From: Escherichia coli
GTDB taxonomy: Bacteria > Pseudomonadota > Gammaproteobacteria > Enterobacterales > Enterobacteriaceae
Length of the DNA stretch: 64,000 bases
Assembly (NCBI RefSeq): GCF_050320075.1
Contig: NZ_CP190018.1
Strand: one strand, 5' to 3'
The notes beneath the pieces were generated by a model, which searched no databases, was not told the origin of the DNA, and saw nothing but the letters and a program-made list of their open reading frames with translations. This document shows, in pieces, positions 1 through 37,835 of the stretch; positions within the stretch are counted from its first letter, which is position 1, and every line of letters begins with the position of its first letter. Position numbers and translations under genes: made by a program.

Positions 1-212
1 TTTCCGCATTGGCGATTGCAGAGGCTAAAGGGAAAATTAAAAATAACGAAGTTGACGTTGTTTTACTTGGCCCGCAAGTTCGCTTTCAGAAACCAGAGAT
101 TGAAGCTGTTGCACAGGGGAAAATGCCTGTAGCTGTTATCGAGATGAAAGACTATGGCACCATGAACGGACAGGCAGTTCTTGAATTTGCGATGAAACTA
201 CTGCAAGAGTAA
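1..212 (+). CDS. PTS lactose/cellobiose-family EIIB component (5'-truncated by window edge)
   Basis: ORF in frame 3 runs from the window edge to the stop at 210-212; C-terminal motif DVVLLGPQVRF...MKDYG is typical of ChbB/CelA-type EIIB; directly followed by EIIC and EIIA genes. Confidence 0.7.
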   Translation, partial: SALAIAEAKGKIKNNEVDVVLLGPQVRFQKPEIEAVAQGKMPVAVIEMKDYGTMNGQAVLEFAMKLLQE

Positions 213-326
213 GAATCTAATATTATTAAACTATTACCTGAACTAACTTTTCACACATCATAAAATGGATATGGCATACATGCTTTATTGGGATGTATAA
301 ATATCCAGAACAACAGGTATAAAAAA

Positions 327-1649
327 ATGGGATTAATGACCTCATTCGAACGTGGAATGGAACGTTTTCTTGTTCCAGTTGCTATCAAGTTAAACTCACA
401 AAAACATGTTGCAGCGGTGAGAGATGGATTCGTTTTTACGTTTCCAATTATCATGGCAAGCTCATTAATTATATTAATTAACTTTGCCATATTATCGCCC
501 GACGGCTTTATTGCCGGGCTGCTGCATCTGAACAGCGTTTTCCCCAACCTTGAAAAAGCACAAGCTATTTTTACTCCGGTAATGAATGGCTCTGTAAATA
601 TCATGTCAATTATGATTGCTTTCCTGGTCGCCAGAAATATGGCGATTAGCTATGAGCAAGATGATCTTTTATGCGGATTAACGGCAATAGGAGCATTTTT
701 TATTGTTTATACGCCATATCAGATGATAGATGGGCAAGCATTCCTGACGACCAAATATCTCGGCGCACAGGGGTTGTTTGTTGCTGTTATCGTTGCATTA
801 ATCACCAGTGAAATATTTTGTCGCTTAGCTCGAAACCCAAAAATCACCATAACGATGCCGGCAGCTGTACCTCCTGCGGTATCGCGTTCATTTAAAGTTT
901 TATTGCCAATATTTTTTGTCATGGTGTTCTTTTCCGCACTTAATTATTGCCTGACACTGATATCCCCGGCAGGATTAAACGATCTCATTTACAAATTAAT
1001 CCAGACGCCGCTCAAACATATGGGAACGAATATCTTTGCGGTAATTATCCTGGGGGCTGTGGGTAATTTCCTGTGGGTGCTGGGGATCCACGGACCTAAT
1101 ACCACCTCGGCAATTCGAGAAACTGTTTTTTCTGAGGCTAATCTGGAGAATCTCTCCTGGGCCGCTCAACACGGCACTACCTGGGGCGCGCCATATCCGA
1201 TTACCTGGACTTCTATTAATGATGCATTCGCCAACTGCGGCGGTTCAGGTATGACGTTGGGGTTATTGTTGGCTATTTTTATCGCGTCTAAGCGTGCGGA
1301 ATACCGTGATCTGGCAAAAATGTCGTTTATCCCCGGTATTTTCAATATCAATGAACCGATAATGTTCGGCCTTCCTATTGTACTTAACCCCATCATGATG
1401 GTGCCGTTTATTCTGGTTCCCATTGTTAACTGTGCCATTGGTTACTTCTTTGTTTCGATGGAAATTATTCCACCGGTTGCTTATGCCGTGCCCTGGACTA
1501 CGCCCGGACCTTTAATTGCTTTCCTCGGAACCGGGGGAAACTGGCTGGCGTTACTGGTGGGTTTTTTATGTTTAGGTGTGGCGACAATGATCTATTTACC
1601 TTTTGTTATTGCCGCCAACAAGGTCAATAACTTAACAACTAACGGATAA
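327..1649 (+). CDS. PTS lactose/cellobiose-family EIIC permease
   Basis: 440-aa polytopic membrane protein from ATG at 327 (ORF track 288..1649); ChbC/CelB-like sequence; located between EIIB and EIIA genes. Confidence 0.85.
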   Translation: MGLMTSFERGMERFLVPVAIKLNSQKHVAAVRDGFVFTFPIIMASSLIILINFAILSPDGFIAGLLHLNSVFPNLEKAQAIFTPVMNGSVNIMSIMIAFLVARNMAISYEQDDLLCGLTAIGAFFIVYTPYQMIDGQAFLTTKYLGAQGLFVAVIVALITSEIFCRLARNPKITITMPAAVPPAVSRSFKVLLPIFFVMVFFSALNYCLTLISPAGLNDLIYKLIQTPLKHMGTNIFAVIILGAVGNFLWVLGIHGPNTTSAIRETVFSEANLENLSWAAQHGTTWGAPYPITWTSINDAFANCGGSGMTLGLLLAIFIASKRAEYRDLAKMSFIPGIFNINEPIMFGLPIVLNPIMMVPFILVPIVNCAIGYFFVSMEIIPPVAYAVPWTTPGPLIAFLGTGGNWLALLVGFLCLGVATMIYLPFVIAANKVNNLTTNG

Positions 1650-1676
1650 TCCCATTTACACAGGAAGGAGATGTTG

Positions 1677-1988
1677 ATGTTTGCAGATGAAGAACTTGTT
1701 ATGGAGTTACTGATCAACGCGGGACAGGCACGTTCTGATGCGATGGAAGCCATACGTTGTGCCGGGCAAAAAGACTGGCAGGGCGCAACTCAGCTAATGG
1801 CCAGTTCGGAATTAGCCTGTCTTCAGGCACATAAGATTCAGACCGCGTTAATTAGTCAGGATGAAGGTTGTGGCAAAATAGAAGTTAATTTAATTCTGGT
1901 TCATGCACAGGATCATTTGATGAATGCAATATTATGCCAGGATTTAGCCAGGGAAATTATTTCATTAAGAAAAGAGCTCCATGCCTGA
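1677..1988 (+). CDS. PTS lactose/cellobiose-family EIIA component
   Basis: About 103-aa helical protein resembling ChbA/CelC; GGAG Shine-Dalgarno at 1667-1670 favours ATG 1677 over ATG 1671. Confidence 0.8.
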   Translation: MFADEELVMELLINAGQARSDAMEAIRCAGQKDWQGATQLMASSELACLQAHKIQTALISQDEGCGKIEVNLILVHAQDHLMNAILCQDLAREIISLRKELHA

Positions 1989-2040
1989 TTTTTTCCTCCA
2001 GTGCGATAGCTGGAGGAAATTATTACACTCTTAAGGATAA

Positions 2041-5181
<3,141 letters not shown>

Positions 5182-5237: not shown

Positions 5238-5456
5238 CTACATAGCGTGTTGATTATAATAGGGCACGCCGAGCGCATCCGACTTATCACTGCCAGTACC
5301 CATGTGATTTAAATCAAACGGTGGTTGTTCCTGCGATGGGGGAACAACCACGACATTGGCACAGGAAGTAACAACCGGCTGCGTGGTTTGTTCCGCAATG
5401 CCCTGCGTGGAAAAGAGAATAAACGCAGCTGCTATTGCGGATAAAAGTGGTTTCAT
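5238..5456 (-). CDS. marB: Multiple antibiotic resistance protein MarB
   Basis: 72-aa periplasmic small protein with signal peptide; sequence recognised as MarB; immediately downstream of marA. Confidence 0.9.
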   Translation of the reverse strand: MKPLLSAIAAAFILFSTQGIAEQTTQPVVTSCANVVVVPPSQEQPPFDLNHMGTGSDKSDALGVPYYNQHAM

Positions 5457-5487: not shown

Positions 5488-5871
5488 CTAGCTGTTGTAA
5501 TGATTTAATGGATGTAAAAAGCGCGATTCGCCCTGCATATTGGTCATCCGGTATTTATGTGGCGGAACATCAAAGTAATTTTTGAAGGTTCGGGTCAGAG
5601 TTTGTTGCGACTCGAAGCCATATCGTTCTGCCAGATAGAGTATCGGCTCGTTACTTTCCTTCAGCTTTTGCGCGATTTCCGTCATCTTACGGCTGCGGAT
5701 GTATTGGCCTAATGAATGACCGGTTTCTTTTTTAAACATCCGTTGCAGGTGCCATTTAGAGTAACCCGAACGCTCTGACACTTTCTCCAGTGACAGTGGC
5801 GATTCCAGGTTGTCCTCGATCCAGTCCAAAATGCTATGAATGGTAATAGCGTCAGTATTGCGTCTGGACAT
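5488..5871 (-). CDS. marA: AraC/XylS-family transcriptional activator MarA
   Basis: ORF 5488..5877 translates to MarA (…[69 protein letters not shown]…); start chosen at second Met to give the canonical 127 aa, the 129-aa alternative begins at 5877. Confidence 0.9.
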
Positions 5872-5891
5872 CGTCATACCTCTTTTTTTGT

Positions 5892-6326
5892 TTACGGCAG
5901 GACTTTCTTAAGCAAATGCTCAAGTGTTGCCACTTCGTCCGCCGTCAGGTTTTTTGTTAATTCTTGATGCAGGTCCTGGCCAACTAATTGATGGCATTGT
6001 TCACATATTGCCGCGCCGCTGGTGGTAAGTTTTACCAGTACGCCGCGCTTGTCATTCGGGTTCGGCAACCTTTCCACCCAGCCTTTACAGACCAGGCGAT
6101 CCAGCATACGGGTCAGCGCCCCCAGGTCGACCGATAACACTCTTTTCAGTTCAACCGGAGTAATACACGCCGCGCAGCGGATAGAGCAGAGCACCTTAAA
6201 CTGTGCCGCGGTAATATCCAGCGGAGACAGATACTCGTTAAGCAGGCGATCTTTCTTCTGATTAACCATATGGATTAAGCGACCCAATGGAATAATTTCA
6301 TTGAACAGATCGCTGGTACTTTTCAC
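5892..6326 (-). CDS. marR: Transcriptional repressor MarR
   Basis: 144-aa winged-helix repressor recognised as MarR; GTG start at 6324-6326; first gene of marRAB. Confidence 0.92.
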
Positions 6327-6331
6327 ATTAG

Positions 6332-6425
6332 TTGCCCTGGCAAGTAATTAGTTGCAGGGGATAATATTGCCCAGGCAAGTATAAGTCAAATGAATGAATT
6401 GACCGATGCCACGTTTTGCTAAATC
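6332..6425 (-). promoter_or_regulatory. marO operator/promoter region: two MarR palindromes (TTGCCCTGGCAA 6332-6343; TTGCCCAGGCAA 6367-6378) and marbox (6401-6425)
   Basis: Both TTGCC-N2-GGCAA palindromes are visible; the sequence at 6401-6425 is the reverse complement of the canonical marbox GATTTAGCAAAACGTGGCATCGGTC; positioned between divergent marR and marC. Confidence 0.8.
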
Positions 6426-6537
6426 GGTTCAAGTTTTGGTCAATGCGATGCAAGGCTAGCTAAAGAGTGACACTTTATCGTTGTTTACCCCTTATACTTT
6501 TCGCTGATAACCCAGATACACAGGATAACAACCACCA

Positions 6538-7203
6538 ATGTTAGATTTATTTAAAGCAATTGGCCTGGGGCTGGTGGTGTTACTACCGTTAGCTAACCCA
6601 TTAACAACTGTCGCGTTATTTCTTGGCCTGGCAGGCAACATGAACAGTGCCGAACGTAATCGTCAGTCGTTGATGGCCTCGGTGTACGTCTTTGCCATCA
6701 TGATGGTGGCGTATTACGCCGGGCAACTGGTGATGGATACATTTGGCATTTCGATTCCCGGTCTGCGAATTGCAGGCGGCTTAATCGTCGCGTTTATCGG
6801 TTTTCGGATGCTTTTTCCGCAACAGAAAGCGATTGATTCACCGGAGGCGAAAAGCAAGTCGGAAGAGCTGGAAGATGAACCCAGCGCCAATATTGCTTTT
6901 GTACCACTGGCAATGCCAAGTACCGCCGGTCCGGGAACCATTGCAATGATTATTAGCTCGGCGTCCACAGTGCGTCAGAGTTCAACCTTCGCTGATTGGG
7001 TGCTGATGGTTGCGCCGCCGCTGATCTTTTTCCTGGTGGCGGTTATTTTGTGGGGAAGTCTACGCAGCTCTGGCGCAATTATGCGGCTGGTGGGTAAGGG
7101 GGGCATTGAAGCGATCTCCCGTCTGATGGGATTCCTGCTGGTATGTATGGGGGTGCAGTTTATTATTAACGGCATCCTGGAAATCATTAAAACGTACCAC
7201 TAA
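6538..7203 (+). CDS. marC: Inner-membrane protein MarC (UPF0056 family)
   Basis: 221-aa polytopic membrane protein; divergent from marRAB. Confidence 0.88.
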
Positions 7204-35232: not shown

Positions 35233-36585
35233 TTATGGTTTGAGTTTATACTTCTGACCATTAATGATTTTTTTGATTAACTCGAATGCAGCGGGGGAAT
35301 ATTTATGAACACCTTCCTTCCCCGTTTTCACTAGCACATGATAGTTATTATCTGAGGATTTAATATTAAAACCAGTTTCCTTGTGTATTCTTTCTAATAC
35401 TTTATGGACGTAATGCCAAGATCCCATATCAAGTAATTTTGCAAGTTCAGATATGGTGTAGGGATAGCTTGCGTTAAGTGCTTGCCCATTATTTAACTCT
35501 GCAATTCCATAAAGTTTCGCTAACACGTTATCTTGCTCAGCAATGTTCTTAAGCATTTCAAAATCATATGGAAGCTCTTGTTTTACAAGAGATTGAGAGG
35601 CAAATGTATAGGTTCTGGCTAATAGCGCCCTGACTAATTTTGGGTTAACACTGATTTCTGGCGTATTTGACGATAGGGCATCATAAATCCAACCGAAATC
35701 ATTGGCATAGATCACTTTGATTCGGATGCTTTTATTTTCACCAACACCAATCAAAATCTCTTTCTGGTGTGAACCTGTACCTTCACATTCTGGACTAAAG
35801 GAAACCAAATAAATATTCGGAATCAAAGCGTTATTTGGCGCAATTATCTCATCAATATCAGACAGGATGGCTTTAATATTCTCATCATTAATACTATAGC
35901 CAATGAAGAACAACGGATGCTCGACGAAATATGTTAATAGTTTTGCACTGATATACTTTTTACGCTTATAAAACTCAACATAGTCTTCATTTGTTATAAT
36001 GATGCTTTCTGGTTCTTTACTACTGCCGTGAATCTTCATGATTTCACCGTATGTAGTATAGTTAACAGTCACAACATTATGGCCAACTATCGGTTGGTAG
36101 TTATCAAATATCTTTTCAAGCAGATCGTCATAGTTTGTTGTAATAATGGCATGGGGCCTTACTTTTTTTAACTTTTCAATTTCTTCAGTGTACTCCATTG
36201 CTGAAAAATCAACCGAGTCTGAAAGGTTATTCAACAATGTTGCAATCTCATGCTTGATATATATATCTTTAGAGCTTTTTCCATTGAAATACTGTTCAGG
36301 ATAACGAGATGTCCCCACATCCCAAGCCCACTCAGCGTATGACTCAGAAAAATCACTTGCTATCATTGGTTTATTGTCATTTCTTGTTTGACTGTAGTAA
36401 CCATACGGGCGAGTGATTAATGGGCAAGTTTCAGCGAGATACTTTAACAGGTTTTCCCAATCAGGAGCTTTCAAGTAGCGTTGAGATACCCCTGCACCCA
36501 TAAAGAGAATTGGCTGTACCTGTAAACCTTCAAGACATGATTTGATATCTTCAATTATTTCTGTCTGATATTCAGAGAAGTCCAT
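35233..36585 (-). CDS. SIR2-like (SIR2_2 / ThsA-DSR-type) domain protein with uncharacterised C-terminal domain; candidate NAD+-depleting anti-phage effector
   Basis: 450 aa; SIR2_2 hallmarks PILFMGAGVS (res 25-34), IITTNYDDLLE (res 147-157, putative catalytic Asn151), KIHGS (His186), EHPLFFIGYSINDE (res 222-235); C-terminal about 190 aa with no recognised family; gene is markedly AT-rich. Confidence 0.75.
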   Translation of the reverse strand: MDFSEYQTEIIEDIKSCLEGLQVQPILFMGAGVSQRYLKAPDWENLLKYLAETCPLITRPYGYYSQTRNDNKPMIASDFSESYAEWAWDVGTSRYPEQYFNGKSSKDIYIKHEIATLLNNLSDSVDFSAMEYTEEIEKLKKVRPHAIITTNYDDLLEKIFDNYQPIVGHNVVTVNYTTYGEIMKIHGSSKEPESIIITNEDYVEFYKRKKYISAKLLTYFVEHPLFFIGYSINDENIKAILSDIDEIIAPNNALIPNIYLVSFSPECEGTGSHQKEILIGVGENKSIRIKVIYANDFGWIYDALSSNTPEISVNPKLVRALLARTYTFASQSLVKQELPYDFEMLKNIAEQDNVLAKLYGIAELNNGQALNASYPYTISELAKLLDMGSWHYVHKVLERIHKETGFNIKSSDNNYHVLVKTGKEGVHKYSPAAFELIKKIINGQKYKLKP

Positions 36586-36799
36586 ACTTTAGCCTTTAGG
36601 ATGTGAGATGCTGGAGTAGTAAATCGCCGCGGAGCGGTTCGGGGTTCTGTGACACCCGAATTTTACCTCGGTTTCCTTTGTATATAATATCATTGAAGTT
36701 ATTTGCATTTCTCAGAAATCTTCTCTGGCTTTGATTGCTATAGCCGAAAGATAGCGCACACTTCGCCGTTGGTCAGTTAGTACGAGGTTTCCGCCAAGT

Positions 36800-37835
36800 T
36801 CACCTTTTACCAAAGATGGCCTCAGAGCTTCCCTGAAGCTTTATCATGGTTTCAAGTAGGTCATCTTCGTTCAGTGAGCGCTGAGATTTGTTGATGCTAG
36901 GCGCGTGCCGTCTGCGGGAAGGCTCATCACCAGAACAAGGTAACGATAGTGAGCGATTATTGTCCCGTTTTCTCTGGACCTGACGGGCAACATCCAACAC
37001 ATGGCCAAGTCTCTTGTTATCTACAATGGCGACGGGCTCAACCTCAGAAAGCCGGTCATAGGTGGAGTAGGGTAGCAGCACGCCATTTAGTCGCAGCTCC
37101 TTATGTCCGTCAGGATAATGCCAGACATCAATATACTTGCCGATGGCTCTTCGACTGTACTCGTTGTCCTCAATCAGATAGAGCATTTTATCGTATTGTA
37201 CAGTCAGATTTTTTGATACCCGGCGAGGCTCTCGCCAGGTAAATTCTGCATCAAGGTCATCGTCTAATGCCAGCGGCCGGTACGCGTTAAAATCATGCAA
37301 GGGTTCTTTGGCAAAGCGCCGGTTATAATCCGCCATGTATTCTTCTGCAAATGCATTGGCCGCTTCTATTGTACAGATCCCCTTAAGCCTGAGCTCCTTA
37401 ACGAGTCGGTCCTGAAGTGTCAAATGAGCACGTTCAACGCGGCCTTTTGCCTGGCTGGTTTCAGCACACAAAGGAGTAATATTAAGGCAGCGCATGGCCC
37501 TGGCAAACTGGGTATCGCCGAGACCGGTGGTGGCGTGCTTATTATTGACTCTGAATACGCTGGCTTTATCGCTGTAGAGGATCATCGGTTTACCGTATTC
37601 AGTGGTGGTCGCAGCCATCAATTTGTATCAGCTCGCCAGTACAAGGACGCCGGTAACGAGGCTGATGAATTTTCGGTGCGCGTTGTCTGCGGGGGATCCA
37701 GAGTCCCGCGTTTATCATGAGACGTCGGATGGTTTCCTTTCCAAGGACCAGACCGTGAACTTCCTCCAGCTTTTCCCGCGCCAGCGTGGGGCCAAAATCA
37801 CGGTAGTGCTCCCGGATTATACTGAGTGCCTCCAA
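36800..37835 (-). mobile_element. Remnant IS element: DDE (integrase-core) transposase gene disrupted by a frameshift
   Basis: Two overlapping minus-strand ORFs (37599..37835 N-terminal HTH part ending …IQIDGCDHH; 36800..37621 catalytic part …ILYSDKASVF…AETSQAKGRVERAHLTLQ); family not confidently assigned (IS481/ISNCY-like); IS ends not identified. Confidence 0.6.

Follow-up and report, generated by a model that had tools for sequence, protein, structure and literature searches.

The marRAB control region of an Escherichia coli genome in its textbook, wild-type form

Is the control region of the marRAB operon intact in this Escherichia coli genome, and, if so, what does an intact operator say about the source of any multidrug resistance (MDR) in the strain? 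An earlier, sequence-only reading of a 64-kb stretch of DNA (hereafter the window) had described an intact marO operator with two MarR palindromes and a marbox, and had concluded that only coding changes in MarR could then account for an MDR phenotype. The whole window is a base-for-base match to positions 2,575,051-2,639,050 of E. coli YZLc1-3 (NZ_CP123240.1), a strain from chicken faeces in Yangzhou.

The marRAB control region found here is the textbook form, already known and wild-type; we are highly confident that window positions 6327-6537, the control region between marC and marRAB, represent canonical E. coli marO with no departure from the wild type. The same marO architecture has been described previously (PMC3920692, PMC6003448). 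Binding, repression and activation in this strain would be expected to follow the K-12 literature: MarR dimers would occupy two near-identical palindromes, with MarR at site I excluding RNA polymerase and site II, in the leader, covering the marR ribosome-binding region. On release of MarR (by salicylate or other phenolics), or on its inactivation, the promoter would fire, and MarA, SoxS or Rob bound to the marbox upstream of the -35 hexamer would then increase transcription, with Fis acting as an accessory factor further upstream of the marbox.

Genes and control elements of the mar locus

The genes marR, marA and marB, recognised from their open reading frames and the best genome matches, follow one another in this order on the minus strand, with marC divergent on the plus strand and ydeA beyond marC (Table 1), the arrangement that defines the surroundings of marO. 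All four mar products (MarR, MarA, MarB and MarC) pass their NCBIfam equivalog cut-offs as well as the Pfam models expected of them, and marB and marC are annotated as such in the NZ_CP123240.1 record. MarR matches the NCBIfam equivalog NF008565 (319 bits, cut-off 240) and Pfam PF01047 (65.9 bits, cut-off 24.6), which places it in the MarR family of winged-helix (wHTH) proteins, and the solved E. coli MarR structures 3voe, 1jgs and 5h3r in the PDB match it with E about 1e-90. MarA matches Pfam HTH_18 and HTH_AraC as well as the MarA equivalog, and thus falls in the MarA/SoxS/Rob subgroup of the AraC/XylS family, whose members are dual helix-turn-helix monomers.

Table 1. Features of the mar locus (window coordinates; positions with a sign are relative to the predicted marRAB transcription start)
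Feature	Position	Strand	Description
marB	5238-5456	-	72 aa; third gene of the operon; NCBIfam MarB equivalog, 138 bits (cut-off 87)
marA	5488-5871	-	127 aa; AraC/XylS-type activator, predicted marbox binder; passes NCBIfam NF008564 and NF012198
marR	5892-6326	-	144 aa; GTG start (6324-6326); predicted repressor at sites I and II
MarR site II palindrome	6332-6343	-	sense TTGCCAGGGCAA; 5' leader, about +11 to +22
marRAB transcription start (+1), predicted	6353	-	7 nt downstream of the -10 hexamer
-10 hexamer TATTAT	6361-6366	-	promoter scan
MarR site I palindrome	6367-6378	-	sense TTGCCTGGGCAA; falls exactly in the -35/-10 spacer; -25 to -14
-35 hexamer TTGACT	6384-6389	-	promoter scan
marbox	6405-6424	-	20 bp; sense ATTTAGCAAAACGTGGCATC; predicted MarA/SoxS/Rob site; -71 to -52
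Probable Fis site core	6427-6441	-	sense GACCAAAACTTGAAC; K-12 GAACAAAACTTGAAC; centred about -81
marC	6538-7203	+	divergent from marRAB; borders the intergenic region; NCBIfam MarC equivalog, 377 bits

Direct reading of the sequence gives the palindromes TTGCCCTGGCAA at 6332-6343 and TTGCCCAGGCAA at 6367-6378, where the earlier reading had put the two MarR sites. They are the only two matches to TTGCCNNGGCAA on either strand of the 64 kb, against 0.14 expected, and none of 100 shuffles yielded two or more. The two form the pair TTGCCnnGGCAA that is characteristic of marO, with site I between the -35 and -10 hexamers and site II just 5' of the marR start, and they are the cores of the two copies of a 15-nt direct repeat, 35 bp apart. 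The hexamers themselves come from an independent promoter scan, which returned TTGACT-17-TATTAT on the minus strand (6389-6361) with 10 of 12 positions matching.

In the published operator, site I sits between -35 and -10, and its deletion leads to an MDR phenotype, while site II lies near the translation start (PMC3920692); the native ribosome-binding site is overlapped by the downstream MarR site (PMC6003448). The positions of both sites in the window agree with the placement in PMC3920692. Site II is 5 nt upstream of the marR GTG, and its centre holds the sole Shine-Dalgarno-like sequence, AGGG, 8 nt before the GTG, so that the earlier description of site II as overlapping the marR ribosome-binding region was right. 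With the predicted transcription start at 6353, the marR GTG falls at +28, and the marbox is centred at -61.5, in agreement with its published position. The MarR footprint limits and the transcription start are reportedly those of Martin and Rosner (1995, 1997) and RegulonDB.

The 21-mer of the K-12 mar marbox, GATTTAGCAAAACGTGGCATC, occurs without a mismatch at 6405-6425 of the minus strand, against 0 chance matches expected. The marbox reported earlier is thus present, on a span of 6405-6425; the 6401-6425 first given to it took in four bases of the adjoining spacer. The marbox consensus AYNGCACNNWNNRYYAAAYN, with one mismatch, matches the plus strand at 6406-6424; the marbox is therefore consensus-forward on that strand and backward relative to marRAB transcription, upstream of the -35 hexamer, as it is in marO. 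This backward orientation reportedly defines the class (Martin et al. 1999). The degenerate consensus on its own, with one mismatch allowed, is not significant in the window (one match, 1.58 expected) and was dropped as independent evidence; the case for the marbox comes from its exact identity to K-12 and its conservation across species. MarA, SoxS and Rob all work through the marbox (PMC6003448).

Conservation of marO within E. coli and across Enterobacteriaceae

In K-12 MG1655 (NC_000913.3, about 1618909-1619119), the sequence corresponding to window positions 6327-6438, from the marR GTG to -85, is identical, and with it site II, the leader, the -10 hexamer, site I, the -35 hexamer, the spacer and the marbox. 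The only two differences in the 211-bp intergenic region, at 6439 and 6480, are both upstream of the marbox. Two differences in 211 bp contrast with a third-codon-position divergence of 5.3% in the flanking genes (P about 0.0009), and the 100 bp at 6327-6426 carry zero differences (P about 0.004). The two genomes also share the mar gene order and an identical MarA (127/127 residues, 100%). MarB is the same at 67 of 72 residues, with five substitutions, and MarR at 141 of 144, the exceptions being K62R, G103S and Y137H. The alignment of MarR and marO with K-12, which the sequence-only reading had proposed as its check, thus finds every mapped binding site unchanged and lists three MarR substitutions.

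Outside the operator, the marR-marA spacer measures 20 nt and contains a run of seven A (5883-5889) in the window, compared with 19 nt and six A in K-12, and the region downstream of marB holds a 6-phospho-beta-glucosidase cluster in the window but eamA in K-12. The seven-A run adjoins the marA Shine-Dalgarno sequence on its upstream side, and the 20-nt spacer is also found in other lineages.

Counts for E. coli were made over about 5,400 complete genomes. The 94-bp region 6332-6425 is exact in 3803 of 5418 records. The 57 bp at 6327-6383, comprising both MarR sites, the -10 hexamer and the leader, are exact in 5143 of 5401 records (95%), and the -35-to-marbox half (6379-6430) in 3980 of 5353. 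All sampled E. coli variants fall in the marbox-to--35 spacer (C>T at 6392, C>T or C>G at 6401, and deletions of 1 bp and 5 bp) or in the leader (C>T at 6358); the palindromes and the marbox are free of them. Hardly any variation in E. coli touches the MarR-site half of marO, and natural variation is concentrated in the spacer between marbox and -35 hexamer.

A 57-bp segment within marR itself (6114-6170, codons ~53-71) is unusually diverged, at 80-90% identity in 1632 records and 90-95% in 2869, in contrast to the adjacent operator, which is exact in 95%; old allelic lineages, or recombination inside marR, may be the cause. Tallies in the identity band of at least 99% are approximate, as they may include a few partial alignments (for example, H169). 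Five of the mar-region matches are on E. coli records labelled as plasmids.

Derepressed mar alleles, which carry natural or selected lesions of the operator or of marR, among them a 20-bp operator duplication (PMC3920692), belong to the same locus, but none of their lesions is present in the window. Several other genomes do depart from the standard layout. In UPEC957C, a canine uropathogenic E. coli (UPEC), a 35-bp deletion corresponding to window 6347-6381 removes site I, the -10 hexamer and the transcription start; this natural operator damage apparently arose between the two 15-17-bp MarR-site repeats, and marC is truncated in the same genome. FDAARGOS_1371 has lost most of marR, from site II to the 3' end, and has YdeA, MarC and MarB proteins in common with the window. 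Deletions of 5 bp in PSS-12 and 1 bp in NT1N28 lie in the interval between marbox and -35 hexamer and change the helical phasing of the activator site, and in Combat13F7 and ETEC1720 the sequence beyond about -100 is replaced, with a RelE/ParE-family toxin gene in the usual place of marC.

The cross-species footprint was drawn from 80 marR loci of other Enterobacteriaceae species, with 81 distinct sequences in the tallies. Upstream of the marbox, identity to the window is about 0.3, and at 6425 it climbs sharply; across the 81 sequences it is 0.86 for the marbox, 1.00 for the -35 hexamer, 0.93 for site I and 0.97 for site II. The -35 hexamer TTGACT is identical in 79 of the 81, site II is kept as TTGCC[A/G]GGGCAA in 78, and the TTGCC...GCAA frame of site I is kept in 79, the variable positions of both palindromes being their central bases. 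Spacing between sites I and II is 35-36 bp in 79/81 sequences, and the distance from marbox to -35 hexamer is constant in 73 of the 76 in which both landmarks were found. Within the marbox, the blocks TTTAGCAA and GTGGCAT are conserved across species. Fixed half-sites, variable centres and fixed spacing form the pattern expected of the operators of a dimeric repressor together with an activator site that depends on helical phase.

Citrobacter, Salmonella, Enterobacter, Kosakonia, Lelliottia and related genera share with the window TTGACT, two TTGCC...GCAA palindromes 35-36 bp apart, the marbox blocks, their constant distance from the -35 hexamer and the GTG start of marR. In most of them the -10 hexamer reads TAATAT and site I reads TTGCCTGAGCAA, and their marboxes differ from that of the window in the A/T-rich centre. 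Two contigs that bear the labels 'Caldithrix sp. MAG' and 'Chryseobacterium sp. 18061' have MarR proteins 97% and 88% identical to that of E. coli, respectively, and are very likely enterobacterial contamination or mislabelling.

The comparison with K-12, the counts over ~5,400 E. coli genomes and the 80 Enterobacteriaceae loci indicate that the marO layout is under constraint. The intact architecture claimed by the earlier reading is borne out by the identity of 6327-6438 to K-12, with which the promoter scan and the conservation across ~80 species agree. That reading had also called the layout functional; the sequence is indeed intact, and function is predicted from its identity to K-12. The footprint and the genome counts together make a useful sanity reference.

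The upstream haplotype, MarR polymorphism and resistance

Judged by its sequence, the mar locus here is a wild-type allele, predicted to be repressible. An intact operator might nevertheless be accompanied by regulation that is quantitatively shifted by variants outside 6332-6425, namely the C at 6439, the haplotype at 6456 and 6480, the seven-A run, and MarR K62R, G103S and Y137H. We regard such a shift as distinctly unlikely, and the evidence on it begins upstream of the marbox. The Fis site in marO is reportedly centred at about -81 (Martin and Rosner 1997). The window has a G-N13-C core centred about there, a candidate Fis site with one substitution relative to K-12 (6439), and Fis is known to bind upstream of the marbox (PMC6003448). 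Among the 81 sequences of the cross-species set, those from outside Escherichia do not conserve the sequence of this probable core.

The sense-strand C at 6439 was at first suspected to be a rare Fis-site variant, as the 71-bp segment 6405-6475 is exact in only 181 records; a narrower query of 45 bp, exact in 3188 of 5373 records, identified it as the majority E. coli allele, K-12 having the minority A. It is the upstream haplotype as a whole that is uncommon, because C at 6439 is combined with a K-12-like base at 6456. In the same region, positions 6430-6444 (sense ATTGACCAAAACTTG) form an 80% direct repeat of the marbox core at 6410-6424 (ATTTAGCAAAACGTG), 20 bp away; this repeat, too, is not conserved outside Escherichia.

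The other points in favour of a quantitative shift are that the K62R-bearing segment of marR is exact in only 263 records, that residue 62 falls inside the part of MarR that the Pfam MarR-family domain matches (residues 38-96), and that the marR-marA spacer is one of 20 nt in place of the 19 in K-12. Against a shift, the C at 6439 is the allele of most E. coli, the 20-nt spacer recurs in other lineages, a fully susceptible isolate carries the same three MarR substitutions, which are not associated with resistance, and all of the changes lie outside the blocks conserved across species. More specifically, the rare haplotype (the 6439, 6456 and 6480 alleles with MarR K62R) could alter Fis-assisted autoactivation or the basal repression of marRAB, which we consider very unlikely; if true, it would amount to a lineage-specific set-point of intrinsic drug tolerance without a classical mar mutation.

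The MarR substitutions are known from published work. The triple K62R/G103S/Y137H was found both in highly resistant isolates and in one from stool whose levofloxacin MIC was 0.016; G103S/Y137H was not associated with resistance, and K62R is cited as having no bearing on loss of MarR function (PMC4317672). Among 280 Norwegian isolates, G103S with Y137H was the commonest MarR variant (PMC7082582). The three substitutions in the window are thus most readily taken as benign published polymorphisms, and the epidemiology suggests that the affinity of MarR would be unchanged.

Resistance can also come from acquired genes, target mutations, acrR, soxR, rob and lon, and from induction through the marbox by SoxS or Rob. 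Because it has so many other sources, an intact marO does not imply that MDR stems from the MarR coding sequence. The contention that MarR coding changes must underlie any MDR in this strain draws on a wild-type operator next to a MarR with three substitutions, but it poses a false dichotomy: the substitutions are common polymorphisms of susceptible isolates too, and numerous unrelated resistance loci and acquired genes exist. Natural mar lesions of other kinds are known in related genomes (marR in FDAARGOS_1371, site I in UPEC957C), with none in the window. We therefore hold this explanation to be extremely unlikely. For a genotype-phenotype reading of resistance in YZLc1-3, one should look outside mar, and K62R, G103S and Y137H should not be counted as resistance mutations.

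Finally, the palindromes might work not as protein sites but as hairpins of RNA or DNA, for instance in a leader structure sequestering the marR ribosome-binding site; this is almost certainly wrong. In the predicted leader RNA, site II can pair into a 4-bp stem closed by a 4-nt loop, but the leader folds no better than shuffled sequences (minimum free energy -4.8 kcal/mol, against -8.05 kcal/mol on average for the shuffles, z = +1.28; 186 of the 200 shuffled leaders are at least as stable), on which ground the RNA-hairpin reading of site II was rejected. Site I, which is upstream of the transcription start, is not transcribed, and invariant half-sites with a variable centre across species are what a dimeric winged-helix operator would be expected to show.

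Other features of the window

Downstream of marB, positions 1-5181 hold a cluster of PTS IIB/IIC/IIA, carbohydrate porin and 6-phospho-beta-glucosidase genes, the glucosidase segment being matched in only 400 of 5426 genomes. The glucosidase gene (3742-5181, plus strand), which adjoins marB, carries a nonsense change of Tyr110 from TAT to TAA (stop at 4069-4071), a single T>A at 4071 relative to strain 746 that PGAP flags as an 'internal stop'; of the 400 E. coli genomes with the gene, two, YZLc1-3 and Ec-U3, have this stop. Elsewhere in the window, at ~33445-37808 and ~45053-48462, are hipBA and a SIR2-family gene beside a degraded ISNCY transposase, and a fimbrial operon with an IS1 insertion that has the truncated usher on one side and a truncated fimbrial subunit on the other.
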